A stretch of DNA of 38,317 nt from a virus. A program made the position numbers and the translations under genes. The stretch's first letter is position 1. Every line of letters starts with the position of its first letter. The notes under the pieces were generated by a model that saw only the letters and a list, made by a program, of their open reading frames with translations, was not told where the DNA came from and made no database searches. The DNA is taken from positions 1 through 38,317 of the IMG/VR virus record IMGVR_UViG_3300009285_000031; one strand, written 5' to 3'. Shown here one piece after another: positions 5,131 through 38,317 of the stretch.

Positions 5131-5844
5131 ATGAGAACATTTAAATTACTCGATCTTTTTTGCTGTGCAGGGGGCGCTTCGGCTGGCTATGCAAAAGCGG
5201 GGTTCGAATGCGTTGGGGTTGACATTAACAATCAACCGAGATATCCGTTTGAATTTCACCAGGCCGACGCCTTCGAGTATCTGCATCAATACGGGGAACA
5301 TTTTGACGTTATACATGCAAGTCCTCCATGTCAAAGATACAGTCAGCTTACTCCTAAAGAGTATCGCGGAAACCATCCTGATTATATCGACCTGATCAGA
5401 TCGGACTTACTGACACTTGGGAAACCTTACGTAATAGAGAATGTGCCAGGGGCAAGGGCATTGCTTAAAAGCCCGCTTATGCTTTGTGGAACAATGTTCG
5501 GGTTGCGTATCCGCAGGCATCGCTTTTTCGAAATAGTACCCAGGATAGCGCCCCCGCTTCTAGCTTGCGATCATACGTTTTATCCGGTCCTGATCTCTGG
5601 TACTCACAAGCGTAAAGGCGGGCGATTCGAGTATTCGGCACAATCGTGTCGTGATGCAAGTGGGCTACATTGGATGACTCGCAAGGAAATGGATGAGGCT
5701 ATACCGCCCGCCTTTACTTGCTTCATTGGAGAGCAGCTCGTTGCACAGTTGAATGTGGAGTCGGGCGTTACATGCCTACAACACAGTATAGCAGGCTCGC
5801 AAAGCCTCGGCCCAAATGCCGAAGCGGCACTTCTGCTATGCTAG
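5131..5844 (+). CDS. DNA (cytosine-5) methyltransferase, short form.
   Basis: Motif I LDLFCCAGGAS, motif IV ASPPCQRYS and motif VI YVIENVPG are all present. Confidence 0.85.
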   Translation: MRTFKLLDLFCCAGGASAGYAKAGFECVGVDINNQPRYPFEFHQADAFEYLHQYGEHFDVIHASPPCQRYSQLTPKEYRGNHPDYIDLIRSDLLTLGKPYVIENVPGARALLKSPLMLCGTMFGLRIRRHRFFEIVPRIAPPLLACDHTFYPVLISGTHKRKGGRFEYSAQSCRDASGLHWMTRKEMDEAIPPAFTCFIGEQLVAQLNVESGVTCLQHSIAGSQSLGPNAEAALLLC

Positions 5845-5847
5845 TCC

Positions 5848-5888
5848 TTGTACGCCATTTGTAAACCTTTGGAGATTGTAGGCGGCGC
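5848..5888 (+). repeat. Left arm of the long-range helix that brackets the radical SAM gene.
   Basis: TTGTACGC-ca-TTTGTAAACCTT-tggaga-TTGTAG-GCGGCGC is complementary to 6688-6728, segment by segment. Confidence 0.8.
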
Positions 5889-6749
5889 ATGAAAATCGCA
5901 AGAGTGTTCCCGGTACAAACAGCGGCCACGCCAGTGGATCAACTGGCATTTGTGGACTGCGAGCCTGGTCTATTCGCTCCAGAGGTTGACGAGGTACACG
6001 TAAGCGTGGCCTTCTCTTGGCACATGCAACGGGCCGAGCAGTTGGCCGAGGCCTGGTCGCACGTCGCGCCGGTGCAGATCGGAGGGCCTGCCTTCAACAA
6101 ACCCGGCGCAGCATTCGTGCCCGGTCGATATGTTCGTGCTGGATACACAATAACGTCGCGTGGCTGTCCGAATCGCTGCTGGTTTTGCTCTGTCTGGCAC
6201 CGTGAACCCGGCCTTTTGGAACTGCCGATTGTCGATGGTACGAACATTCTCGACGACAACCTGCTGGCATGTTCTGAGCGGCATGTACGCGATGTTTTTG
6301 CGATGCTATCGAGGCAGCGCGGGCGTGTGGAGTTTACGGGCGGACTTGAAGCTGCGAGGCTTCAGGCTTGGCACGTAGAGCTTCTCGCCAAGTTGCGGCC
6401 CGCTCAGATGTTTTTCGCGCTGGATACTCCCGACGATGAAGAGCCGCTCAGAAACGCCTCTCGTATGCTGCGGGAGGCCGGGTTCACGCGTCAACAGATG
6501 CGAGCATATTGCCTTATCGGGGGGCCACGCGACACGCTCGAACAAGCTGAGGTGCGGCTGCGCCTATGTGTCGAATTGGGCTTTTTCCCCATGGCGACGC
6601 TATGGCGCGACCAGAAAGGTATTACAGACCCGCAGTGGCGTGCGTTTCAACGTGAGTGGGCTCGGCCCTCAATCATCTATCGGAAATGCGCCGCTGAAAA
6701 CAGTGGAAGGTTTACAAACAGCGTACAACAGGCGCAGCTTGCAATTTGA
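5889..6749 (+). CDS. Radical SAM enzyme of unknown specificity.
   Basis: The CxxxCxxC cluster in TSRGCPNRCWFCSVW lies after an N-terminal domain of about 90 aa. The ORF is 286 aa. Confidence 0.8.
   Translation: MKIARVFPVQTAATPVDQLAFVDCEPGLFAPEVDEVHVSVAFSWHMQRAEQLAEAWSHVAPVQIGGPAFNKPGAAFVPGRYVRAGYTITSRGCPNRCWFCSVWHREPGLLELPIVDGTNILDDNLLACSERHVRDVFAMLSRQRGRVEFTGGLEAARLQAWHVELLAKLRPAQMFFALDTPDDEEPLRNASRMLREAGFTRQQMRAYCLIGGPRDTLEQAEVRLRLCVELGFFPMATLWRDQKGITDPQWRAFQREWARPSIIYRKCAAENSGRFTNSVQQAQLAI
6688..6728 (+). repeat. Right arm of the long-range helix that brackets the radical SAM gene. It lies inside the 3' end of the ORF.
   Basis: GCGCCGC-TGAAAA-cagtgg-AAGGTTTACAAA-ca-GCGTACAA is the reverse complement of the 7-, 12- and 8-bp segments of 5848-5888. 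Confidence 0.8.
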
Positions 6750-6792
6750 GTACAAACAGCAAGCGTGCTCCGGGACGTTATGCGGAAATAAT

Positions 6793-6929
6793 GGGGCTTT
6801 CCGATGGTTGTAGGCGGCGATGGGAACAGAGACCGGAGCATGGTGCTACCTCGGACCGGTGAGCATTACCGAGGGGATGTCGTCGCGTCGGCATCCAGCT
6901 TAGTCGCCGCTGAACACTATGGAGGCCCC
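6793..6929 (+). ncRNA. Candidate structured RNA (bracket-motif element A).
   Basis: The region has no ORF. It has an outer helix (6793-6801/6921-6929), TTGTAG (6808-6813), a 7-bp helix (GCGGCGA 6814-6820 / TCGCCGC 6904-6910) and TGAACA (6911-6916). There is an inner hairpin CCTCGG/CCGAGG (6849-6854/6869-6874). Confidence 0.5.
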
Positions 6930-7109
6930 TTTACGTTCACATAACACGCAAAGTAATCAATAGGCCCGGCCTGTGCCGATAGGGTTAACATGGCCGCACG
7001 GTAAAGCACTTAAGGTGGGCGTACTGTGACTCACGAGTGCCGGGCCTACAGCTTACATTTGCGAACACGTTAGGCGAAATAAAAAATATTTTTCAATTTT
7101 TGTTTCTTT

Positions 7110-7631
7110 ATGAAAATTATATTATTCATGGCAACATCTTTAAATGGAATGATCGCCGGCAAGGATGGCAACGAGGATTTTTTGTCGCACGCAAACTGGG
7201 AGTCCTTTGGCAAATTAGCTAAAGAGCATGGTTGTTTTATCATCGGCAGAAAAACATACGAGGCTGTTCAAAAATGGCCATATTATAATTATAACGATAT
7301 CGAAGCGAAACTAAAAGTAGTTGTTTCCACTGGCAAAGATTTAAAATTGGCACCACCATTTTTGGTTGTCAATTCGCCAAAGGGCGCTATTGAAAAAGCC
7401 GTTGCCATGAATTTTGAGAGCGCAATTCTTACGGGTGGAAGCACAATCAACAGTGCGTTTTTAAACGAAAATTTAATCGACGAAGTAGTGATAAATATTG
7501 AGCCTGCGATTGTTGGTTGTGGTATTCCTCTTTTTGCCGAGAAGGATATAAAAAAGCGTCTGACTTTTGTTGAGTCCGTAAGAATTGCCAATGATATATT
7601 GCAAGTTAAATATAAGGTGAACAAAATTTGA
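7110..7631 (+). CDS. Dihydrofolate reductase-family protein (RibD C-terminal domain type).
   Basis: The start MKIILFMATSLNGMIAGKDG, then IIGRKTYE, LTGGSTINSAFL..LIDEVVINIEPAIVGCGIPLF and a size of 173 aa are typical of RibD_C/DHFR-like reductases. The gene is visibly AT-rich compared with its flanks. Confidence 0.7.
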   Translation: MKIILFMATSLNGMIAGKDGNEDFLSHANWESFGKLAKEHGCFIIGRKTYEAVQKWPYYNYNDIEAKLKVVVSTGKDLKLAPPFLVVNSPKGAIEKAVAMNFESAILTGGSTINSAFLNENLIDEVVINIEPAIVGCGIPLFAEKDIKKRLTFVESVRIANDILQVKYKVNKI

Positions 7632-9117: not shown

Positions 9118-9414
9118 TTGAGAGACAAATGTTTAGATTTTTTGCGTGAAGCAAGAGCTGTTATTAGCGAAGAGCAAAGCTCGGGTACTCATAGTAGTCC
9201 GCAGGATGTAACATTAACCGCGATTGATACGGCAATTTTGTGGCGTTGTCACGATTTGCATTTCCGGGAACCAGTCGTGAATGAGAGCCTCGAGCCTTGG
9301 AGCGTTCGCAATAATCAAGTTAACAAACACTACACGCATGGGCCGATGCGGCCACGTTACAAAGTAAATTCTGAAGTTGTCGGCAAGAATTCAAACAGAA
9401 GACGCAAAAAATGA
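9118..9414 (+). CDS. Hypothetical protein (start uncertain).
   Basis: 98-aa ORF whose stop overlaps the NeuB-like start (ATGA). The only start available is TTG. Confidence 0.35.
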   Translation: MRDKCLDFLREARAVISEEQSSGTHSSPQDVTLTAIDTAILWRCHDLHFREPVVNESLEPWSVRNNQVNKHYTHGPMRPRYKVNSEVVGKNSNRRRKK

Positions 9415-10046
9415 CAAGGATTATAGCAGAAATCGGAAGCACGCACGACGGAAAGCTGGCGAACTGTATGAAGGCAATAGGCTGCGCTGCGGAGGCCGGC
9501 GTGCAGGATGTTAAGTTCCAGTTGTTGGAGAAGGAGCACGCCAAAAACGGGAACGTCTCAATCTGTCCATCGTGGCTACCAGAGCTTGTGAAATACGGTA
9601 GATCTTCCGATGTAAATGTTTTCGCTTCGGCATGGTCGTTGCAGTCTATCGTTGCACTTGCAGACTCGGGAGCGACATCGATAAAGTTTGCGTATTCTGC
9701 AAGATTGGAGCAAGGATTAATTGATACGGCGCAGACTCATTTTAAAGAAGTAATCGTTTCTTCCGACGTTATGACCGGCCCGCTACCGGGAGTAATAAAC
9801 CTGTTCTGCATACCGCAGTATCCTGTTTATTTCAAAGTCGATTTCGCCGAAATATTCAACGCAGGATTCGACGGGTTTTCCGACCATACTCTCGGAATCA
9901 ACCAAACCATCGACGCCATTCGGGCAGGTGCGCGAATTATCGAGAAGCACGTCTGCCAATGTCCCGGCAGCAAGTGCCCGGATGCTCGATTCGCAATATC
10001 GTGGGATCAAGTAAAGCTACTTAAGCGTGAGGCGGAATCGATATGA
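9411..10046 (+). CDS. NeuB-family nonulosonic acid synthase-like protein. It is short, with the TIM-barrel part only.
   Basis: The motifs IIAEIGSTHDG, AGVQDVKFQ and FSDHTLGINQTIDAIRAGARIIEKH are present. At 211 aa there is no room for the usual C-terminal SAF domain. Confidence 0.65.
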   Translation: MTRIIAEIGSTHDGKLANCMKAIGCAAEAGVQDVKFQLLEKEHAKNGNVSICPSWLPELVKYGRSSDVNVFASAWSLQSIVALADSGATSIKFAYSARLEQGLIDTAQTHFKEVIVSSDVMTGPLPGVINLFCIPQYPVYFKVDFAEIFNAGFDGFSDHTLGINQTIDAIRAGARIIEKHVCQCPGSKCPDARFAISWDQVKLLKREAESI

Positions 10047-10660
10047 AAATCCTTGTCATAGGCAGCGAGGGGTCGACAGGTAGGAGGTATTGCAAAATAC
10101 TGGAAGAGATGGGGATCTCGGTATTGAAGTACGACATCGAAGACGTGAAAAATCCGCTTCCAGGATACGACAAGGTGATAATTGCGACTCCAACGGAAAC
10201 GCATCGGGAGTATTATTATATGTTACCTAAAACTGAATGGCAAAACATTCTTATCGAAAAACCTGCGTTTTCAAAAATTCCAGACCTTATCGTAGGATAT
10301 ATGTATTCTGGCATTGAGGCGAAGATGGTCTGCAATTGGGCTTTCGTTTTTCACGATGAAATTCTTCAGCCCGGCAAGCATCTTGTTTTTTACGATTGTT
10401 CAAACCACGGAAAAGAAGGGTACTGGTTTGACACTTGCCAGTTACACATCCTTTCAAACGGGAGAGGAACAATTGCGGAGTCGGCGGATGCGTTCAATGC
10501 CTCGATTGACGACAAAGAGGTAACAAGGACGATGATCGAGGCATCCTATGTCCGAATGATTGATTCGTGGATTTATCGCCCGGAAGAGTTGTGGAACGTT
10601 CAGGATTTAATACCGGAACTTTCTTACATTATCCGAAAGCAGGAAATTGAAAATGGATAA
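10043..10660 (+). CDS. Gfo/Idh/MocA-like NAD(P)-dependent oxidoreductase.
   Basis: There is an N-terminal Rossmann start (MKILVIGSEGSTGRRY), then ATPTETH and ILIEKP (the EKP motif). Confidence 0.5.
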   Translation: MKILVIGSEGSTGRRYCKILEEMGISVLKYDIEDVKNPLPGYDKVIIATPTETHREYYYMLPKTEWQNILIEKPAFSKIPDLIVGYMYSGIEAKMVCNWAFVFHDEILQPGKHLVFYDCSNHGKEGYWFDTCQLHILSNGRGTIAESADAFNASIDDKEVTRTMIEASYVRMIDSWIYRPEELWNVQDLIPELSYIIRKQEIENG

Positions 10661-11216
10661 AAGCAAGTTCGTCGTCGGAATTCAGGTGCGTTCTACAAGC
10701 ACGAGATTTCCGGGAAAGTGCAGCCGGGTTATTAATGGAGCGGAAATGTGGAGAAGTATCTTTTGTGAATGCCGGAGCACCGGGATAGACTGCAGAATGC
10801 TCGTTCCGAAAAATGATAAGCTCGTTTCGGAACTCGAAATGTTCGACAAAGAATCTATAATCACCGGCCCGGAAAACTCCCCTCTTCAGAGGTTTCAAAA
10901 CCTGCTCGCGGCAAGCACGGCAAAAAATATCATCCGTATCACCGCTGACTGCCCGTTAATTGTATCGTGGATGATTCTTGACATGGCCCACCAGTTCGAG
11001 CGAGATAATCGAACGTTCATGTACAACGAACTTGACGGGGTGGACGTGCAGATTGCCAGCAGGAATATTTTCTTTTATCCTCGATATTTAGATGAAGAGC
11101 ACGTTTTCAACATGGAGAAAATAAAAGAGCACAGACTGTATACAAAGTGGGAAATGCACCTATCTGTCGATACTAAAGAGCAGTACGAGCATATCAAATT
11201 TATTACGGGAGGATAA
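10653..11216 (+). CDS. Cytidylyltransferase-family protein (SpsF / acylneuraminate cytidylyltransferase-like).
   Basis: IQVRSTSTRFPGK and IIRITADCPLI match the CTP-transferase type 3 pattern. The ATG at 10653 was preferred over the TTG at 10647. Confidence 0.55.
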   Translation: MDKSKFVVGIQVRSTSTRFPGKCSRVINGAEMWRSIFCECRSTGIDCRMLVPKNDKLVSELEMFDKESIITGPENSPLQRFQNLLAASTAKNIIRITADCPLIVSWMILDMAHQFERDNRTFMYNELDGVDVQIASRNIFFYPRYLDEEHVFNMEKIKEHRLYTKWEMHLSVDTKEQYEHIKFITGG

Positions 11217-12356
11217 ATGATTTTTGGAGGAGCGTCAACATTTTCGAAAATGCACTGCAATTATCCGGAGAATATTCCGGAGTCGATTACCAGATCAAGT
11301 GGCCAATTTTTAGAGTTCGATGATGGAAAAGACGTTTTCGACACCGTTTCCGCCCTTGGAGCACGACTGGTCGATTGCGAACCGTCGGGCGGAATGGTGT
11401 CGCTTCCCCATAAAAGCGAAAAGATTCTTGCTCGTATGCTTTGTGGACTTTTCCCATTTGTCGAAATGGTGCGGTATGGCTGCAATGGTGCCGACGCAAC
11501 TGAGGGTGCTATCCGATACGCGCGGGCGCACACCGGTAAAAAATACGTAATCAGTTGCGGATACCACTCCTGCCAAAGCGCGTTTACGATGAATACCCCT
11601 CCATCGCTCGGGTGTATTCCCGGGTACATCGTCCAGGCAAACGATTTTAATGCGGTGATAAAGCTGCTGAATGGAGTTGACAGCGATCTAATCAGGCACC
11701 CCGAAGGCGTCGCCGCAGTAATCGTGGAACCGGTAACGCTCGATCTCGATGTCAGAGAGCAGTTGGAGGAAATACGCTCAATCACGAAAAAAAAAGGAAT
11801 CGTTCTTATTTTCGACGAGATCATTACCGGGTTTCGAGTTCCGACGAGATCGATTTCAACATGGTACGGCATTGCCCCGGACCTTATCACGCTCGGGAAA
11901 GCGCTCGGTGGCGGGTATCCGCTATCGATCATAGGCGGCCCGCGCGCCATCATGGACAAGCCGGTGTTCCACTCGTACACGTTCGCAGGGCTTCCGACTG
12001 CTCTTAACAACGCGATAAATATATGCAATATCAGAGATGTTGAATTCATCGATTTCTGGGACCGTTCAGATAAATTCATGTACGACTTCAACAATCTACC
12101 TTTTGAAATAAAGCTGAAGGGGTACGCAACCCGCGGAGTCTGGACCGGCCCCGAAATCGTGAAGTTTATCTTCTGGCAAGAGATGTTCAAAAAAGGGGTT
12201 CTGCTCGGACCGGCGTTCTTCCCGAGAATGGGGTGGACAAAAGAAGAGTATGGGCTGTTGTTGCAAAAGTCAGTAGAAACCCTCAAAGAAATACGAGACA
12301 AAGAAATTTGTCTCGTCGGGAGAATGCCTGCATCAATTTTCAAGAGGAACTCATGA
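11217..12356 (+). CDS. Class III PLP-dependent aminotransferase (related to glutamate-1-semialdehyde aminomutase).
   Basis: The motifs IFDEIITGFRV and LITLGKALGGGYPLS (PLP lysine) are present. The ORF is 379 aa. Confidence 0.8.
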   Translation: MIFGGASTFSKMHCNYPENIPESITRSSGQFLEFDDGKDVFDTVSALGARLVDCEPSGGMVSLPHKSEKILARMLCGLFPFVEMVRYGCNGADATEGAIRYARAHTGKKYVISCGYHSCQSAFTMNTPPSLGCIPGYIVQANDFNAVIKLLNGVDSDLIRHPEGVAAVIVEPVTLDLDVREQLEEIRSITKKKGIVLIFDEIITGFRVPTRSISTWYGIAPDLITLGKALGGGYPLSIIGGPRAIMDKPVFHSYTFAGLPTALNNAINICNIRDVEFIDFWDRSDKFMYDFNNLPFEIKLKGYATRGVWTGPEIVKFIFWQEMFKKGVLLGPAFFPRMGWTKEEYGLLLQKSVETLKEIRDKEICLVGRMPASIFKRNS

Positions 12357-12649
12357 TGGAGAAATGGATTGAAGCCAATAAAGCGTTGCCCCGATCAGGC
12401 GAGCGTGTTTTAGTTTACGGAATAAAACTACATAAGGTTACGATAGCGTGGTATAGTGAATTCAAAGAATGGCATTCGTTTGACGTTGGCCACAACGACA
12501 AAATATGGATGTTGAATGATTTTATAACGCATTGGAAAAAACTCCCTACACGTCCAAATGTAAAATGCCCTCACGATACCATTTTCGTATCTAACAATAA
12601 AGACGTTGTTTTATGTCAAGATTGCGGTAAGCATTTTAAAAAGAAGTAA
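12353..12649 (+). CDS. DUF551-domain protein with a C-terminal zinc-ribbon-like CxxC.
   Basis: The sequence WIEANKALPRSGERVLVYG...ITHWKKLPTRP fits the DUF551 pattern. The start overlaps the upstream stop. Confidence 0.6.
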   Translation: MMEKWIEANKALPRSGERVLVYGIKLHKVTIAWYSEFKEWHSFDVGHNDKIWMLNDFITHWKKLPTRPNVKCPHDTIFVSNNKDVVLCQDCGKHFKKK

Positions 12650-12708
12650 AAAAGATATGAGAATAAAATTAGTTTCTGTCGATTCGAAAAACTATTCAAG
12701 AGGAACAC

Positions 12709-13134
12709 ATGAAGCATAAAATCAAGCTCACCGATGTTTATTTGTTCAATTATTCAGACATGTTACTTCTGTATGGGTGTCTTTCGGAACGACCAAAAGT
12801 TGCAAACATCAGTCACGACGGAAAACTTCCTAAATTTGGAGATCATGTCGCCTTTGTTGAAAGTAAGCCGTATCGTGAATGGTATATAATCAAGGTCATG
12901 GTTGACGGAACCTGGATGAGCTGCGGAAATGTTTACATTACGAAAAACAATGAGATCGGAATTTTCATCCTGAAGTATTACCAGCGACGAGGTATCGCCC
13001 TGTCGGTAGTAAAAAGAATATCGACCGGGAAAGAGGTTTTTGCGAACATCGCGCCGAAGAATTATCCATCGCAGAAGCTTTTCAAGAAACTCGGGTTCGT
13101 TCACATTCAAAATACGTACAGGCGGTCAAAATGA
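12709..13134 (+). CDS. GNAT-family N-acetyltransferase (putative).
   Basis: The acetyl-CoA motif A-like sequence YQRRGIALSVV and the C-terminal KLFKKLGF are present. The ORF is 141 aa. Confidence 0.5.
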   Translation: MKHKIKLTDVYLFNYSDMLLLYGCLSERPKVANISHDGKLPKFGDHVAFVESKPYREWYIIKVMVDGTWMSCGNVYITKNNEIGIFILKYYQRRGIALSVVKRISTGKEVFANIAPKNYPSQKLFKKLGFVHIQNTYRRSK

Positions 13135-14153
13135 ACTATTTCATTTCAGGCGGAACCGGAACCATCGGGAAAGAGCTGGTTTCTCAACTGTTGTCAAAGG
13201 AAAATCTACTTCACCCAACGGAGAAAATCGTCATCTACTCACGCGACGAGGCGAAGCAGGCGGCAATGGCTGAAACATTCCCGCCGGGAGGAGCGTGTGG
13301 CATGCGGTACATCGTCGGCGATATATGCGACTACGACAGGCTCGTCTACGGAATGGAGGGCGCCCATGTCGTCATTCACGCTGCGGCAATGAAGAGAATC
13401 GACGCCTGCGAATACAACCCGATCGAGAGCCTGCGCGTGAACGTGACCGGATCTCTGAACGTCGCCAGAGCATGTATCGAGTGCGGAGTAAAGCAGGCTA
13501 TTTTTCTATCGACCGACAAGGCGTGTAACCCGTGTTCTGCTTATGGCGCACAGAAGGCGGCGATTGAGCGTCTATGGATCGGAATGAACAACATGACATC
13601 GAAGACGTGCTTCAACGTTGCGAGGTATGGGAATGTCTTCGGGTCTCGTGGATCGGTCATCGATAAGTGGAAAGCTGCCGCAGCCGCCGGCAAGGCGCTC
13701 ACAATAACTTCAACAGAAATGACAAGATTTTTTTGGAATATCGATGAGGCCGCATCGTTCATTATCAACCGCGTTGCAGATGCGGGCAGGAATTTTGATC
13801 GCGGCCTCATCTATATCCCTAAAATGAAGGCGCAGAAAATCGTCGATGTCGCTCTGTCGATCGGAAAAGAGATCAACGTCGTCGGGTTGCGATGCCCGGA
13901 AAAAATGAATGAAGATCTCATCAGTGAAGTAGAAGGCATGAGTGGATACGACCAGGGAGATTTTTACATCATTTACCCGATGCAACACGATTGGGCTGCG
14001 GATATCGGGACGAGAGGTAAGAATTGCGAAGACGGGTTCAGGTTATCTTCGTCAATCAACACAGGAGAATTTTGCGACACAAAACAATGCGATTCGCGGG
14101 ATTGCGGTGTTTGCAAAGTGGGTTATGGTAGAATTTGCGATAAACGTACTTAA
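13131..14153 (+). CDS. Nucleotide-sugar 4,6-dehydratase of the PseB/FlaA1/CapD family.
   Basis: The motifs ISGGTGTIGKEL, VIHAAAMKRIDACEYNP, STDKACNPCSAYGAQK and ARYGNVFGSRGSVI are present. Confidence 0.85.
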   Translation: MNYFISGGTGTIGKELVSQLLSKENLLHPTEKIVIYSRDEAKQAAMAETFPPGGACGMRYIVGDICDYDRLVYGMEGAHVVIHAAAMKRIDACEYNPIESLRVNVTGSLNVARACIECGVKQAIFLSTDKACNPCSAYGAQKAAIERLWIGMNNMTSKTCFNVARYGNVFGSRGSVIDKWKAAAAAGKALTITSTEMTRFFWNIDEAASFIINRVADAGRNFDRGLIYIPKMKAQKIVDVALSIGKEINVVGLRCPEKMNEDLISEVEGMSGYDQGDFYIIYPMQHDWAADIGTRGKNCEDGFRLSSSINTGEFCDTKQCDSRDCGVCKVGYGRICDKRT

Positions 14154-14217
14154 AAGCAAGGCGGTTTCGCCGAGGCTCCCGGTTGCTCGACTCTTCCGCC
14201 GTTCGGAGGAGAAACAG

Positions 14218-14246
14218 GCCCCGGCGGCAACCGGGGCTTTTTTTAT
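14218..14246 (+). terminator. Rho-independent terminator at the convergence point of the plus and minus gene blocks.
   Basis: GCCCCGG-cggcaa-CCGGGGC followed by TTTTTTTAT. Confidence 0.7.
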
Positions 14247-25470: not shown

Positions 25471-25896
25471 CTAATCTTTAACGAAACAACTAAGCGTATC
25501 GAGAACGGACGCTTTGCCGGTTTTGGGAATCATATCGACCGAAATGTAATGTATTTCGATGTCGATGTTCTCATTTAAATAGGCAAGCCTGTCGCCGATG
25601 TGCCTCTCGATCTTTTCGTCATATTCCGGATTGATCCCGTGCTCAAGTCCGGCATAACGATTTCCAATTATTATCGGCTTTCCTGATTCGTCCTTCGAGC
25701 AGAACTTCAGAGAGAGTATTCGCTCCTGCTTCTGCGATGCGGAAACCAATTCCTCGATCTCGTCAACAATTCTTTTCAATTTCCCTTTTGTTTTGTTGAG
25801 GGCATAAACCACCTCGAAGGCGAGTTCCGTTTCAGAATTCAGCGTCGCTTCGATTTTTGCCGAAAGTTCGCGAACTTCAATCCGTGTCATTTCCAC
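25471..25896 (-). CDS. Hypothetical protein.
   Basis: 141-aa ORF. Confidence 0.45.
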   Translation of the reverse strand: MEMTRIEVRELSAKIEATLNSETELAFEVVYALNKTKGKLKRIVDEIEELVSASQKQERILSLKFCSKDESGKPIIIGNRYAGLEHGINPEYDEKIERHIGDRLAYLNENIDIEIHYISVDMIPKTGKASVLDTLSCFVKD

Positions 25897-26345
25897 TTTG
25901 CTTCTCCTCTTAAATGTTCGTAATTGCCTTTTATCTCGTTGACGTTCTTAAATCTCAACAGCTTCCTGATGAACCCGTATGAGTCCGTCGATATTCCCCG
26001 CCATTCCCTCTCCTTTTCAAGTTCCACCCAAAACCCCTTGACGGGCGAATAAATTATTGAATAATCGGGCTGTCCTTTATAATAATTGCAGCATGGCAAA
26101 CCGTTTTTTATCAGTTCGAGAGGCTCGCTCAACATTACATCCCAATCGATGTATAAAATGTCGTCATACCTCATTAGTATGTCGAATCTATACAGATCGG
26201 AGAGTTTTACAGGGTTCTCCACTTTTGCAAACTTGAATATTGCCACGTCATGGTAAAACTCTCTGACGCTCTCCATGCATCGAAGAACCTTTTCGGGTGC
26301 GTCTCCATATATAATTTGAACGGTTTTCATATTATGCATGCACAA
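25887..26345 (-). CDS. Putative glycosyltransferase, GT32-like with a DXD motif.
   Basis: LSDLYRFDILMRYDDILYIDWDV resembles the SD..R..iL...GG.Y.D.D signature. The start is ambiguous (26345, 26339 or 26330). Confidence 0.4.
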   Translation of the reverse strand: MCMHNMKTVQIIYGDAPEKVLRCMESVREFYHDVAIFKFAKVENPVKLSDLYRFDILMRYDDILYIDWDVMLSEPLELIKNGLPCCNYYKGQPDYSIIYSPVKGFWVELEKEREWRGISTDSYGFIRKLLRFKNVNEIKGNYEHLRGEAKWK

Positions 26346-28114: not shown

Positions 28115-29170
28115 TCAAAACAAGAGATGAAGTTTCCCGCCGACCGACTTTTCAAGCATCGACGGCATCCGTTTATACATGCAGAATATCTGCAGCGCGG
28201 ATTTTAAATCCATCTGCAGAATCTGTTTGATATTTCCCTCGTGATAGGCTCCCATGATTCCGCCTTCGGTCGCATTGATCCACAACTGAGGATTGTTCCC
28301 GGTCCCGCCGCACGCCATGAAGTCAAACCAGTTTTTAAATCCGAAATACGACTGCCACGTCCATACGCGGTTCCCGAAAACGTCAATCCATGGGATAACA
28401 CCGGAGAATTTCTCGTTGTACCAGCAATCCCAGGCGTGGAATTTGTGGTCGTATGAGAAACAGAGATCCATCCCGACAAAGATGGGGACCGAGCATCCGA
28501 GAATCGCCCTTGAAAAGTACAGCGCCGCACCCATCACGTTCCCGCCGACGTTGAAGCCCGGGACTTTCGAGATATCAACAATTTTGAAAATCTCCTTCGC
28601 AAGCTCTTCAGATGCGCACGGGGTGGTATACCACAAAATCGGACCTCTCCACCTTTTAATGAAATCCGGATGAGTCCCGTGGTACGCGACAAGCGTCCGG
28701 TTCTCCGTCTTCTGCCAGTACCAGTCAGGTGTGTCGGCGTGCGCTCCGCCTTCCGACATCTCTTTGATGCAGATGTCTCCGGCGTCAAGGATAAGGTAAA
28801 AATCATCAGGTCGCATCAGGTTGCGATCTTCCATGAACGGGAAGTTGTGAACATTCGTCACCATCCTGACATCCTGGCGCCCGATCGATCTGTCTCCGTC
28901 GCCGATAAGATCTTTCCAGTTTCTCGAAAGCGACGGACCCGCCCCTGCGAGGATAACCGGACGACCGGCGCAAGCCTCGAAAACCTGATACGCGCTATCT
29001 TTAATGAAATCATGGGTTCCGGAGTTCACCTTCGTCTGTTCAATCCACTGCTTTTCCCACGTCTTTACCGTAACCCCGTCATTGCGAACCGCATTGTTCC
29101 AGGCAGCCTCTTTGCCGAGAGGTATGCCCTCAATGTACGGGCTGTATTGCAGAGTCATTTCAACTTGCAT
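28115..29170 (-). CDS. Maf/DUF115 (MptE-like) family protein, a putative nonulosonic-acid glycosyltransferase.
   Basis: The motifs GRPVILAGAGPSLSRN, MRPDDFYLILDAGD and VGGNVMGAALYFSRAILGCSVPIFVGMDLCFS match the conserved blocks I associate with the DUF115/Maf flagellin-glycosylation family. Confidence 0.55.
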   Translation of the reverse strand: MQVEMTLQYSPYIEGIPLGKEAAWNNAVRNDGVTVKTWEKQWIEQTKVNSGTHDFIKDSAYQVFEACAGRPVILAGAGPSLSRNWKDLIGDGDRSIGRQDVRMVTNVHNFPFMEDRNLMRPDDFYLILDAGDICIKEMSEGGAHADTPDWYWQKTENRTLVAYHGTHPDFIKRWRGPILWYTTPCASEELAKEIFKIVDISKVPGFNVGGNVMGAALYFSRAILGCSVPIFVGMDLCFSYDHKFHAWDCWYNEKFSGVIPWIDVFGNRVWTWQSYFGFKNWFDFMACGGTGNNPQLWINATEGGIMGAYHEGNIKQILQMDLKSALQIFCMYKRMPSMLEKSVGGKLHLLF

Positions 29171-29220: not shown

Positions 29221-29718
29221 TTACGCGCAATTCACAAACACGGTGAACGTGCAGAGCGCCGTTGCCGCCGACGCGGCGGTAAGCGCCACACCGACGAACG
29301 GGTAAAGATTCCCAGTTGTCGCCGAACGAGAACGGAAAGCACCGCTACCATCAAGCGCAACGCCCTGACCGGCAGTCGTTCCGGAATTGGAATAACACGC
29401 CGGGACCGCCCCCTTGACGACGACCCAGCCGTAATTACGAGCCGGGATGTCGTTGTGGTACACGACGCCGCCAATATCAAAATCGCCCGCAGTCGAGCTG
29501 ACCGTAAGGCTGTACCCGGATGTCGCCGATGCGTTGGCGCCGATCCGTACCATTGCGTAACCGACTGACGCGGTGGAAGAGGATTTGTTGTAGATGTACT
29601 GATACTTCAAACCTCCACTCCATCGTTCGGTCCCGATTTCAACGGAGTTCGTCGCCGTTACCTGGCTGACACTCTCCTCGATTATTTGCTGCAGTCCACT
29701 GATACTCATGGCTTTCAC
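29221..29718 (-). CDS. Putative capsid decoration or auxiliary head protein (Ser/Thr/Ala/Gly-rich).
   Basis: 165-aa ORF immediately downstream of the major capsid gene. The call is positional. Confidence 0.4.
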   Translation of the reverse strand: MKAMSISGLQQIIEESVSQVTATNSVEIGTERWSGGLKYQYIYNKSSSTASVGYAMVRIGANASATSGYSLTVSSTAGDFDIGGVVYHNDIPARNYGWVVVKGAVPACYSNSGTTAGQGVALDGSGAFRSRSATTGNLYPFVGVALTAASAATALCTFTVFVNCA

Positions 29719-29725
29719 CCCTTTC

Positions 29726-30643
29726 TTAAACGAGCGCGGTCATCATACCGTGCATTCTGTTGTTGTTGGACGTCATCGCACCGGTCCAGAAAATCTGCGC
29801 CACTTTGACGTTCTGGTTTGTCGGCTGACGGAATCCGGAGAATCGGAAATTCTCATCCTTGTGGGCGATGAGCTGAATATAGTTCTCATTGACAACGTAC
29901 AAGTATCCGCTGTCAAGGTGCGAATCGACTACGACGGGAATGCCGTTGAAGATCAGATTTTTGAACCCGGCCTTCAGGGTTTCCTCGTCGGCAAAACGCT
30001 GCTGCGGCTGAATTGCCGCCCACAAGTCGTCGAATTGATCCTGTTTGAGAAACACCACGGTCGGCGAATCGCTGTCAACCGTGCAGTCTCCGAGCAACGC
30101 CTGAAGAGAAGAAGGTGTAAGTGCGGTGGTCGTCGAATCGACGTGGCCTTGCCACCATGAGTACGTCCCCTTGGCGATGGTTCCGTGCGTGCCGGTTGCC
30201 GCGCAGATCATCTTTAGACCCTCGAAGGTGTTCGTGGTTGTCCCGTCACCGAAAATGGCGGTCCCGAGCTTATCTTTGAGGGTTTTCTCCGCCATCTGCA
30301 CCTTTGCCTTCAGGTGATTGATGATCGCGTTCTTCCCCGCGTTCTTCAGCTCGTCGAGGCGGGTAATCTGAATCGATGCGTATGCCTGTTTCCAGTCCCA
30401 TATCGCATCGGTGATCTGCTGGTTGTCATCGGTAAGCAGGGTTCCTGAACCGCTGTACCATCCCGCGCTCGTGGTCTGAGCATAGGCGAGAGGTTGGGTA
30501 ATCTGCGTGCCGCCATCGACGGTATCGTACCATCCGCGCTTTTTTGCTCTCTGCAATGCCGCGTTGCTGGCGAAAATATTGTCAACCAGCTTCGGTATCA
30601 GATATTTCTGAGTCAGTGCAGAGATTTCGGCTGTCAATGCCAT
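29726..30643 (-). CDS. Major capsid protein.
   Basis: 305-aa ORF downstream of the scaffold-like gene. The N-terminal pattern LIPKLVDNIFASNAALQRAKK...GGTQITQPL and the overall layout are typical of phage major capsid proteins. Confidence 0.75.
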   Translation of the reverse strand: MALTAEISALTQKYLIPKLVDNIFASNAALQRAKKRGWYDTVDGGTQITQPLAYAQTTSAGWYSGSGTLLTDDNQQITDAIWDWKQAYASIQITRLDELKNAGKNAIINHLKAKVQMAEKTLKDKLGTAIFGDGTTTNTFEGLKMICAATGTHGTIAKGTYSWWQGHVDSTTTALTPSSLQALLGDCTVDSDSPTVVFLKQDQFDDLWAAIQPQQRFADEETLKAGFKNLIFNGIPVVVDSHLDSGYLYVVNENYIQLIAHKDENFRFSGFRQPTNQNVKVAQIFWTGAMTSNNNRMHGMMTALV

Positions 30644-37638: not shown

Positions 37639-37939
37639 TATCATGTCTGCATCGTATTCGATCGATTCGAAGGCCGACGCGAAAAGGTGTGTATTTGCGT
37701 TTATCTCGATGGTAACCGATCTCGTCCGCTCCGATCATCCGGAACTGAACATCAATGATACGAACGTCACTCTTCGGGCTGGCGTTGCGAACACCGTTGA
37801 GGCAGTGGTTGTCATAAATGACAGGCCCCGCACTTCTCTTTTTACGATCACGGCGTCGGTCAGATATCCGGTTGTCACGTACAAAATCATACCGACCGGT
37901 AGCAACCTGGACGACGTTTTAATAGAGGAGGTTTTCTGA
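37631..37939 (+). CDS. Hypothetical protein.
   Basis: 102-aa ORF with RBS GGGAGGAAAAATG. Confidence 0.55.
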   Translation: MVDIMSASYSIDSKADAKRCVFAFISMVTDLVRSDHPELNINDTNVTLRAGVANTVEAVVVINDRPRTSLFTITASVRYPVVTYKIIPTGSNLDDVLIEEVF

Positions 37940-38317
37940 TGTGTCGAGGAATTGGAGCTATCGCCCTGCAACGAGATCAAAGGCTTGTTTTTAAAAGCGG
38001 GATTAATTCTCACTCGGAAATCAGGAGGGTTTGCGGAGTCGCCGACCTGAAACCAGGAGAGCAGGTAAATCTGGAGGCGCTTCCCGGAAATAATTTCGAC
38101 GACTACAAAAACTGGACCATCCACGTAGATCACGACGGTGAGCCGCCGAAATGGTTTATCGATGACCGGGTCGAAACAGAGTCCCGCTTCAGGGATTTTT
38201 TTGAGAGCGAACTCAAAGAGGTTGTCGCAACAGGTAAATACGGCGGGTATCTGGACCTCCGGGGCACGGCGGTGACCTCGCTCGGGTCACTGCAGTCTGT
38301 CGGCGGGTATCTGGACC
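37939..38317 (+). CDS. 5' part of the wrap-around ORF encoding the LRR-like repeat protein (continues at 74..213 after the overlap is removed).
   Basis: ATG at 37939 follows GAGGAGG. The frame stays open to the end of the window and enters the 60-bp repeats in phase at 38245. Confidence 0.6.
   Translation, partial: MCRGIGAIALQRDQRLVFKSGINSHSEIRRVCGVADLKPGEQVNLEALPGNNFDDYKNWTIHVDHDGEPPKWFIDDRVETESRFRDFFESELKEVVATGKYGGYLDLRGTAVTSLGSLQSVGGYLD
38245..38317. repeat. Terminal redundancy: identical to 1-73.
   Basis: Exact 73-nt match to the start of the window. Confidence 0.9.

Follow-up and report, generated by a model that had tools for sequence, protein, structure and literature searches.

The window analysed here, i.e. 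the whole stretch of 38,317 nucleotides of IMG/VR virus record IMGVR_UViG_3300009285_000031, assembled from a groundwater metagenome, represents an uncultured, podophage-like virus whose genome it contains in full. It carries an operon of nonulosonic acid-type biosynthesis genes on the plus strand (9411-14153) and, among its head genes, a gene for a Maf-like candidate glycosyltransferase. On balance we favour the view that this virus possesses its own nonulosonic-acid-based protein-glycosylation system, in which the sugar would be made by the operon and placed on a virion protein by the Maf-like enzyme. The system is real, coherent and conserved, and it combines known enzyme families in a composition, a degree of miniaturisation and a biological setting that are unprecedented. 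A comparison of the window's ends revealed identical termini (1-73 and 38245-38317), showing that the genome is complete and circularly assembled with a length of ~38,244 bp.

A compact operon for six enzymes

Seven open reading frames (ORFs), all on the plus strand, fill positions 9411-14153. The ends of neighbouring ORFs overlap by 4-14 bp or abut, with the exception of one gap of 59 bp, and the genes are intact and seem translationally coupled. An intrinsic terminator closes the operon and separates it from the convergent late genes. The features are as follows, with lengths in amino acids (aa):

9411-10046, plus strand: mini NeuB-type nonulosonic acid synthase condensing phosphoenolpyruvate (PEP), 211 aa (PF03102, E 3e-19)
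10043-10660, plus strand: mini Gfo/Idh/MocA NAD(P) oxidoreductase, 205 aa, referred to as ORF2 (single sequence E 0.0038, family profile E 5e-16)
10653-11216 with an alternative TTG start at 10647, plus strand: SpsF/KdsB-type cytidine triphosphate (CTP)-transferase, 187-189 aa (PF02348, 24.9 bits)
11217-12356, plus strand: class III (HemL-like) pyridoxal phosphate (PLP) aminotransferase, 379 aa (PF00202, E 3.9e-24)
12353-12649, plus strand: DUF551 protein with a Cys-rich C-terminal motif, 98 aa (Pfam DUF551, E 7.5e-6)
12709-13134, plus strand: minimal GNAT N-acetyltransferase, 141 aa (Pfam FR47, 34.2 bits)
13131-14153, plus strand: PseB/FlaA1-type UDP-N-acetylglucosamine (UDP-GlcNAc) 4,6-dehydratase, 340 aa (Polysacc_synt_2, E 6e-71)
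14216-14239, no strand assigned: intrinsic terminator, a GC-rich hairpin with a 9-bp stem containing 7 GC pairs and a T-run, TTTTTTTAT

The Pfam cut-offs are 22.6 bits for CTP_transf_3, 22.1 bits for FR47 and 34.6 bits for PF01973, the family of the Maf-like protein. A preliminary description of this DNA had placed an operon of six genes here: its location, shared orientation and tight packing are as described, while the count rises to seven ORFs with the DUF551 gene, which had been overlooked. Its estimate that about 4.7 kb, roughly one eighth of the genome, is devoted to this purpose agrees with the 4,743 bp (12.4% of 38,244 bp) determined here. The DUF551 ORF has probably been inserted in this genome only and probably has no part in the pathway; in the related loci L005 and L006 the gene is found elsewhere in the genome, and in L002 it is not at this position. 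Its equation with a protein of ~97-99 aa encoded at the same position in other lineages was rejected, the proteins being unrelated.

Enzyme families and active sites

The mini-NeuB protein was modelled by AlphaFold2 (AF2) with a mean predicted local distance difference test (pLDDT) score of 97.6. The top Foldseek matches of the model in the PDB are Neisseria meningitidis NeuB, Leptospira NeuB, Bacillus subtilis SpsE and Campylobacter jejuni PseI with TM-scores of 0.79-0.85 on the query, the synthases of 3-deoxy-D-arabino-heptulosonate 7-phosphate (DAHP) and 3-deoxy-D-manno-octulosonate 8-phosphate (KDO8P) ranking well below these. The metal- and PEP-binding residues of the NeuB family are present in the motifs GS-H, KFQ, K92, GxSDH, EKH and PD, and H12, K35, Q37, K92, S157, H159, E178, K179, H180 and D191 do not vary among 47 homologues. 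NeuB clusters of 205-260 aa number more than 120, every one of them on phage-sized contigs.

For ORF2, a family profile built from 30 homologues matches inositol dehydrogenase structures of the Gfo/Idh/MocA family in the PDB (E 5e-16); G7, G10, R15, H54 and E72-K73-P74 are invariant, and so are the motifs GxxGxxG, ATPTxxH and EKP. The CTP-transferase has its top NCBIfam matches among KdsB subfamilies (E 2.5e-8) and its top PDB match in cytidylyltransferase 6oew, the motifs R13-x2-S16-x-R18-x-P20-x-K22 and D99-C100-P101 being invariant across homologues; tested against the PseF model TIGR03584 it gave no match.

The nearest NCBIfam and PDB matches of the aminotransferase are glutamate-1-semialdehyde (GSA) aminomutases, and its PLP lysine K228 and D200 recur without exception in 19 homologues. 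In a crude neighbour-joining (NJ) tree without support values, the aminotransferases of small phages form a clade of their own, apart from HemL and apart from the DegT-containing loci of bacteria and large phages. An identity as HemL, i.e. a role in tetrapyrrole synthesis, was rejected in view of the HemL model scores (134 bits, cut-off 486), the separate clade and the sugar-biosynthesis context. A scan of genome contigs with the aminotransferase alignment yielded one phage-like contig of a metagenome-assembled genome, no bacterial counterpart and mostly housekeeping HemL, since the pattern IFDE[IV]ITG is common to both; the housekeeping-type HemL loci recovered have no cassette partners nearby.

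The GNAT protein shows, beside FR47, weaker matches to Acetyltransf_1/3/7 and contains the acetyl-CoA motif QRRGIA; all its matches are generic GNAT matches, and NCBIfam, including the PseH model TIGR03585, returned none. The GNAT of locus L008, which occupies the same place in its cassette, scores 79.6 bits against TIGR03585 (cut-off 93.1), and BLASTP detected no similarity between it and the window GNAT.

The PseB-like protein has TIGR03589 (PseB) as its best NCBIfam model with 282 bits (E 5.8e-84, cut-off 408), compared to 167 for FnlA and 41 for LegB. It aligns over its full length with Helicobacter pylori FlaA1/PseB (PDB 2gn4, E 2.9e-59), the STDK...Y...K residues being in register. At its C-terminus (14070-14153) we observed an additional Cys-rich tail, ...CDTKQCDSRDCGVCKVGYGRICDKRT, which is missing from the homologues of related phages (285-321 aa) and may be a metal-binding or interaction module.

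Each enzyme family named in the preliminary description was thus recovered by profile or structure, the Gfo/Idh/MocA family only via its family profile. The nonulosonic-acid pathway proposed there is the only reading that makes use of the PseB-type, aminotransferase, acetyltransferase, NeuB-type and KdsB/SpsF-type enzymes together.

A Maf-like gene in the head module

An iterative search seeded with the 597-aa PF01973 protein of a second phage (L171) uncovered a Maf-like ORF that is the second gene downstream of the one for the major capsid protein:

28115-29170, minus strand: Maf-like (MptE-like/DUF115) candidate nonulosonic-acid glycosyltransferase, 351 aa (PF01973, 44.8 bits)
29221-29718, minus strand: p165, a Ser/Thr-rich protein, the sole ORF between the capsid and Maf-like genes
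29726-30643, minus strand: major capsid protein (phrog_9953 major head protein, E 5.6e-54)

PF01973 (MptE-like, formerly DUF115/MAF_flag10) is the catalytic core of Maf enzymes, which O-glycosylate Ser/Thr residues of flagellin with pseudaminic acid, legionaminic acid, Neu5Ac or Kdo (bioRxiv 10.1101/2020.06.03.131540). The AF2 model of the Maf-like protein (pLDDT 94.7) has as its top Foldseek match the Maf glycosyltransferase 5MU5 of Magnetospirillum (E 1.9e-7, TM-score 0.50 on the query), followed by the archaeal MptE kinase and then, with much weaker E-values, by human sialyltransferases dependent on cytidine monophosphate (CMP)-sialic acid. A sequence profile of the protein searched against the PDB likewise has 5mu5 as its only significant match (E 6.5e-5).

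Of 80 related viral contigs, ~70 preserve the gene order scaffold-capsid-p165-Maf. Ser and Thr together account for 21.8% of p165 and on average for 20.2% of its homologues, compared to 14.7% in background ORFs; no match to p165 was found in Pfam, PHROG or the PDB, nor could it be assigned to a known decoration protein. We regard p165 as a candidate for the glycan acceptor or for an accessory protein of the head, and the major capsid protein, which is 28-30% identical to the capsid proteins of Myxococcus phages Mx8 and Mx9 and Stenotrophomonas phage BUCT555, as an alternative acceptor candidate. The fixed place of the Maf-like gene in the head module, its Ser/Thr-rich neighbour and the apparent absence of lysogeny functions together point to glycosylation of the virion. 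Decoration of the virion had been one of two purposes suggested in the preliminary description, and it gains support from this Maf-type gene in the capsid module (28115-29170), the position of which is conserved across the lineage.

A further ORF of 152 aa in the virion module (25887-26345, minus strand) shows a weak, sub-threshold match to Gly_transf_sug, the glycosyltransferase DXD sugar-binding region (E 0.0035), which may indicate another glycosylation enzyme or be due to chance.

Relatives and distribution

Relatives of the aminotransferase are encoded on at least 146 IMG/VR contigs, 80 loci of which we compared, and relatives of the Maf-like gene on 186. The same gene set recurs in the 80 viral loci, sometimes dispersed, and takes three arrangements. 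In the one represented by the window, the mini-NeuB gene lies within the cassette. A second, commoner one has the order PseB-Gfo-CTP-AT-(small protein)-GNAT (AT, aminotransferase) and follows the tail genes. In the third, found in larger phages with contigs of up to 77 kb, GNAT and methyltransferase genes accompany Gfo, a CTP_transf_3::Aminotran_3 fusion, PseB, DegT and a full-length NeuB with its SAF domain. The fusion protein has 678 aa in L072 (7128-14856) and ~670-690 aa in similar loci among L060-L091, indicating that the two activities are functionally tied. We had considered NeuB as missing from relatives of the second arrangement, a gap that would have weakened the nonulosonic-acid reading, and rejected this, as a NeuB of 349 aa (L294:1820-2869) adjoins the terminase ~17 kb away; the pathway genes of these commonest relatives are spread over three places in a genome of ~40 kb. 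A scan with the phage NeuB recovered the contigs of L014, L019, L027, L030 and others.

At least 15 contigs carry both aminotransferase and Maf-like relatives among the matches listed (80 per gene), and in L034 and L037 both genes are part of one locus. The seven functions keep company even where the genes lie scattered, and this is good evidence of a functional link. The combination of Maf and nonulosonic-acid genes has also spread to other phage backbones, as deduced from L171 (3362-10648), an unrelated phage with DNA polymerase A, which encodes PseB-like, GNAT and mini-NeuB proteins together with the 597-aa Maf (PF01973, E 3.4e-36); no class III aminotransferase or CTP-transferase was found within 10 kb of this locus. 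Among bacteria, a nonulosonic-acid locus of the candidate phyla radiation (CPR; Jacksonbacteria) has the order PseB-DegT-...-Gfo-CTP-...-AT-...-NeuB-GNAT, and the lipopolysaccharide (LPS) locus of Legionella serogroup 6 contains the aminotransferase and CTP-transferase beside PseG, GNAT, DegT and CapD (PMC3694923).

A nucleotide search of 50,697 deposited phage records with the operon as query gave no match. In tblastn searches of the same records with the aminotransferase, the Maf-like and PseB-like proteins and the full-length phage NeuB, we obtained host-contaminant HemL, one PseB-like match in a megaphage, or nothing, and from these searches neither a cultured relative nor a host emerged; the aminotransferase and the Maf-like gene are present in 0 of the 50,697 records. 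The preliminary description had called the investment in such an operon very unusual, which holds for deposited phages and does not hold for metagenomes, given the aminotransferase count above. Being common in viromes and absent from cultured phages, the system has been overlooked.

Proposed pathway and product

We infer the substrate of every step, the sugar, its acceptor and the benefit to the phage from what is shown here: the families and folds of the enzymes, their intact catalytic motifs, and seven genes that are conserved and co-occur. In the proposed route, the PseB-type enzyme would convert UDP-GlcNAc to a UDP-4-keto-6-deoxy-N-acetylhexosamine (UDP-4-keto-6-deoxy-HexNAc), to which an amino group would be added by the class III aminotransferase or by a PseC of the host. 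The GNAT would N-acetylate this amine, and release of the nucleotide would fall to a host enzyme or to an unrecognised protein. Mini-NeuB would then join the hexose with PEP to yield a nine-carbon 2-keto-3-deoxy acid, which the SpsF/KdsB-type enzyme would activate with CMP. The Gfo/Idh/MocA enzyme would most likely oxidise a side-chain hydroxyl of the CMP-sugar, comparable to ElaA acting at C8 of CMP-legionaminic acid, and this might result in an epimerised, keto or further aminated derivative. Finally, the Maf-like protein, presumably co-transcribed with the head genes, would move the sugar onto Ser/Thr residues of p165 or of the capsid protein.

The tailoring steps have precedents. In ElaABC, ElaB makes CMP-legionaminic acid (CMP-Leg), the Gfo/Idh/MocA enzyme ElaA oxidises its C8 hydroxyl and a short-chain dehydrogenase/reductase (SDR) reduces the ketone (PMC13656337). 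The prophage-encoded EpaA is a CTP_transf_3 domain fused to a ketone-reducing enzyme (PMC12053666), and SpsF is genetically needed for the use of Leg and not for its synthesis (PMC7439481). The oxidoreductase gene is always linked to the CTP-transferase and aminotransferase genes, and by analogy the phage trio could oxidise and then aminate a CMP-sugar.

With the dehydratase being nearer to the inverting PseB than to the LegB or PglF types, a pseudaminic-type skeleton is likelier than a legionaminic one. As the sole aminotransferase in the genome, the class III enzyme may be responsible for C4 transamination; since the trio co-occurs with DegT elsewhere, it may instead act late, in tailoring, and be more than a mere substitute for PseC. 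The separate clade of the small-phage aminotransferases in the NJ tree is compatible with either role. We have a slight preference for a dual or shifted role, and we predict a non-canonical product in either case.

Evaluation of alternative explanations

Several observations weigh against the virus-encoded virion glycosylation favoured here. All scores against the equivalog models for PseB, PseI, PseF and PseH in NCBIfam are below the curated cut-offs, mini-NeuB for instance reaching 67.5 bits against TIGR03586 (cut-off 340) and remaining likewise far under the cut-off of TIGR03569, and these models therefore do not fix the exact sugar. Mini-NeuB consists of the TIM barrel only, the SAF domain (also called AFP domain), which in N. 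meningitidis NeuB contributes a substrate-binding Arg, being entirely absent. The short (~200-aa) phage clade of Gfo/Idh/MocA proteins has Gln at the position of the catalytic His, which longer family members retain, among them the proteins from the larger phages and from the bacterial locus; this exchange hints at an altered chemistry. As the preliminary description had stated, no PseG is evident and the aminotransferase belongs to class III and not to the DegT type: scans of the window ORFs found neither a match to DegT (PseC) seeds or Pfam DegT nor a member of the PseG/LegG or glycosyltransferase-28 type families, leaving two canonical steps without an assigned enzyme. The co-occurrence of the class III aminotransferase with DegT in bacteria and larger phages speaks against a simple replacement of PseC. 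Of bacterial Maf, the Maf-like protein comprises no more than the central domain (351 compared to 632-666 aa), the placement of its gene among the head genes is circumstantial evidence, and the Maf enzymes known to us act on flagellins and not on virions.

Four of the enzymes (211, 205, 187-189 and 141 aa) are strongly miniaturised, being 25-40% shorter than their characterised homologues, and together with the equivalog scores this could suggest decaying, non-functional remnants of a captured bacterial gene cluster. We assign this a negligible probability: dozens to hundreds of phage contigs encode the same short forms, conserved at 35-70% identity and with invariant catalytic residues, which rules out a remnant, and the AF2 models are very confident and the genes intact and apparently translationally coupled. 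More serious, though still doubtful, is the explanation that the oxidoreductase, CTP-transferase and aminotransferase constitute a late tailoring module only, with C4 transamination (PseC) and UDP release (PseG) supplied by the host. Spelled out, a pseudaminic or legionaminic acid made by the host or boosted by the phage would be CMP-activated, oxidised, transaminated and acetylated by the GNAT to a triamino acid, e.g. an 8-amino derivative. In the larger phages and in the bacterial locus, the trio occurs beside its own DegT gene and a full-length NeuB, its CTP-transferase::aminotransferase fusion parallels the CTP_transf_3::reductase fusion of EpaA, and the Gfo/Idh/MocA enzyme ElaA acts as an oxidase at C8 of CMP-Leg. 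Class III enzymes are moreover omega-transaminases acting on aldehydes or ketones remote from a carboxylate, and an 8-amino nonulosonic acid has reportedly been found in the O-antigen of Tenacibaculum maritimum. However, the host would have to own the whole pathway, making the phage's PseB, GNAT and NeuB largely redundant; the small-phage aminotransferases are separate from those of the DegT-containing loci, so that their function may have shifted, and the short oxidoreductase has lost the catalytic His to Gln.

The use of the sugar can also be questioned. The CMP-sugar might serve to remodel the host, i.e. its flagellin, pili, S-layer, LPS or capsule, via the phage Maf-like protein or host transferases, which we consider unlikely, as we do the benefits this would bring, namely masking of receptors that blocks superinfection or reduces the loss of progeny on debris. 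The phage protein falls well short of bacterial Maf in length and aligns with its central domain alone, and it lacks the regions presumed to bind flagellin; both count against this use. In ~70 of 80 relatives the Maf-like gene has a fixed position between p165 and the rest of the head genes, a pattern more usual for morphogenesis genes than for genes of host conversion (morons), and other lineages have the cassette straight after the tail genes, on the late strand. Lysogenic conversion is also unlikely given that neither an integrase nor a repressor was found among the window ORFs scanned. In favour of host remodelling, the operon is located at the end of the early/middle plus-strand block, outside the late block, bacterial Maf enzymes glycosylate flagellins (bioRxiv 10.1101/2020.06.03.131540), and EpaA/EpaB, the only experimentally documented phage-borne nonulosonic-acid enzymes that we found, alter the host capsule (PMC12053666). 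Far less probable is that the operon provides a nucleotide sugar for a non-protein use, such as DNA hypermodification, a 2,4-diamino-2,4,6-trideoxyhexose for interference with the cell wall, or an anti-defence metabolite. The early region does encode DNA methylase, radical-SAM-like and DHFR-like proteins, and phages are known to glycosylate modified bases. Nevertheless, the window contains no recognisable hydroxymethyl-pyrimidine synthase or DNA glycosyltransferase, PADLOC returned no matches on it, so that a role in defence was likewise rejected, and the NeuB synthase, CMP-transferase and Maf-like protein specify ulosonic-acid chemistry and a protein acceptor. The glycosylation of a virion protein by a virus-encoded pathway accordingly stays the reading we prefer.

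Genome context

The remaining genes of the window form two blocks:

Plus-strand block: replication initiator, ExoVIII-like, RusA, DNA methylase, radical-SAM-like and DHFR-like proteins
Minus-strand block: TerS, TerL, portal, scaffold-like protein, major capsid protein, SU10-type adaptor and tail proteins

No tRNA genes were found in the window. Upstream of the sugar operon on the plus strand (5131-7631) lie genes for a DNA methyltransferase (5131-5844), a radical-SAM-like protein (5889-6749), the latter within a GC-rich island (0.58), and a RibD_C/DHFR-like protein (7110-7631); this trio may be a module for nucleotide or DNA modification. An ORF of 172 aa on the plus strand bridges the circular junction, running from 37939-38317 into 1-213, and encodes tandem repeats of 20 aa (GGYLDLxGTAVTSLGSLQSV) that resemble leucine-rich repeats in appearance. 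As the assembly breaks within a 60-nucleotide repeat of this ORF, the real copy number of the repeat may exceed the assembled one. Locus L006, a near-identical relative of the ~39 kb phage, resides on a contig of 131,964 bp (Ga0393988_04765) and could be a prophage in a host chromosome, and would then name the host, or a concatemer.

Significance

Nonulosonic acids, i.e. sialic, pseudaminic and legionaminic acids, are regarded as cell-surface sugars of animals and bacteria. We found no description in the literature of a nonulosonic acid, NeuB, CMP-transferase or Maf-type enzyme for a phage virion. If the proposed system operates as outlined, this would be the first virus particle coated with a nonulosonic acid, and its acceptor the first substrate of a Maf-type enzyme other than flagellin. 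It would represent a new class of virion modification that could affect the charge and stability of the particle, its adsorption to non-host surfaces or mucus, the way lectins, antibodies and depolymerases recognise it, and the mimicry of receptors. In its boldest form, which we put forward tentatively and with somewhat less confidence than the general reading, this would amount to a complete, miniaturised and self-contained seven-gene "viral sialylation" occupying ~15% of the genome, in which a new tailored, possibly triamino, pseudaminic-type sugar, formed with the help of the Gfo/Idh/MocA, CTP-transferase and class III aminotransferase trio, would be brought onto the capsid surface by a minimal Maf. 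The 211-aa NeuB, the ~200-aa Gfo/Idh/MocA enzyme, the 187-aa CMP-transferase and the 351-aa Maf offer natural minimal enzymes for structural work and for the chemo-enzymatic synthesis of bacterial sialic-acid analogues. The data moreover hint at a function for the widespread trio of Gfo/Idh/MocA, SpsF-like and HemL-like proteins in bacterial nonulosonic-acid loci, e.g. that for the LPS of Legionella serogroup 6.

Comparison with known systems

The closest overall counterpart is the CMP-pseudaminic acid pathway of Helicobacter and Campylobacter (PseB, PseC, PseH, PseG, PseI and PseF), with which the phage shares a PseB/FlaA1-type dehydratase, a GNAT, a synthase of the NeuB/PseI fold and a CTP_transf_3 enzyme, i.e. 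a gene set that reads from UDP-GlcNAc to a CMP-nonulosonate. In contrast to this pathway, the phage set has neither a DegT-type PseC nor PseG, adds a class III aminotransferase and a Gfo/Idh/MocA enzyme, has a NeuB without SAF, and consists of miniaturised, virus-encoded enzymes under the equivalog cut-offs. The legionaminic acid pathway encoded by sps of Bacillus subtilis (SpsM, C, D, G, E and F) likewise starts from a UDP-linked sugar, and its SpsE and SpsF are the nearest named relatives of the NeuB-type and CTP-transferase ORFs; it differs in using the DegT enzyme SpsC and the PseG-like SpsG and in having no class III aminotransferase, Gfo/Idh/MocA enzyme or Maf.

For the tailoring trio, ElaABC (Acinetobacter KL49, Vibrio vulnificus) and EpaA/EpaB offer an analogy, combining a CTP-transferase and an oxidoreductase with a third enzyme that would act on a keto intermediate. 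The oxidoreductase of ElaABC belongs to Gfo/Idh/MocA as in the phage trio, EpaA/EpaB are phage-carried and have CTP_transf_3 fused to the third enzyme as in the larger phages, and both systems modify CMP-nonulosonates at C8. As the third enzyme of the phage trio is a PLP aminotransferase and not an SDR or aldo-keto reductase, amination is expected in place of epimerisation. What the EpaAB prophages alter, in contrast, is a sugar produced by the host for its own capsule, and they have genes neither for the core pathway nor for a transferase.

With Maf of Magnetospirillum magneticum (5MU5), the phage protein shares the PF01973 core and the presence of nonulosonic-acid biosynthesis genes in the same genome; it has about half the length, its gene lies amid capsid-module genes and not in a flagellar locus, and its presumed acceptor is a virion protein. 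Virus-encoded glycosylation of virions is known from the capsids and tails of mycobacteriophages and from the fibrils of giant viruses, which carry virus-made bacillosamine or viosamine. These systems employ hexose or deoxy-amino-hexose donors and transferases of the GT-A or GT-B type, and they resemble the one proposed here in that viral sugar genes decorate the virus's own particle.

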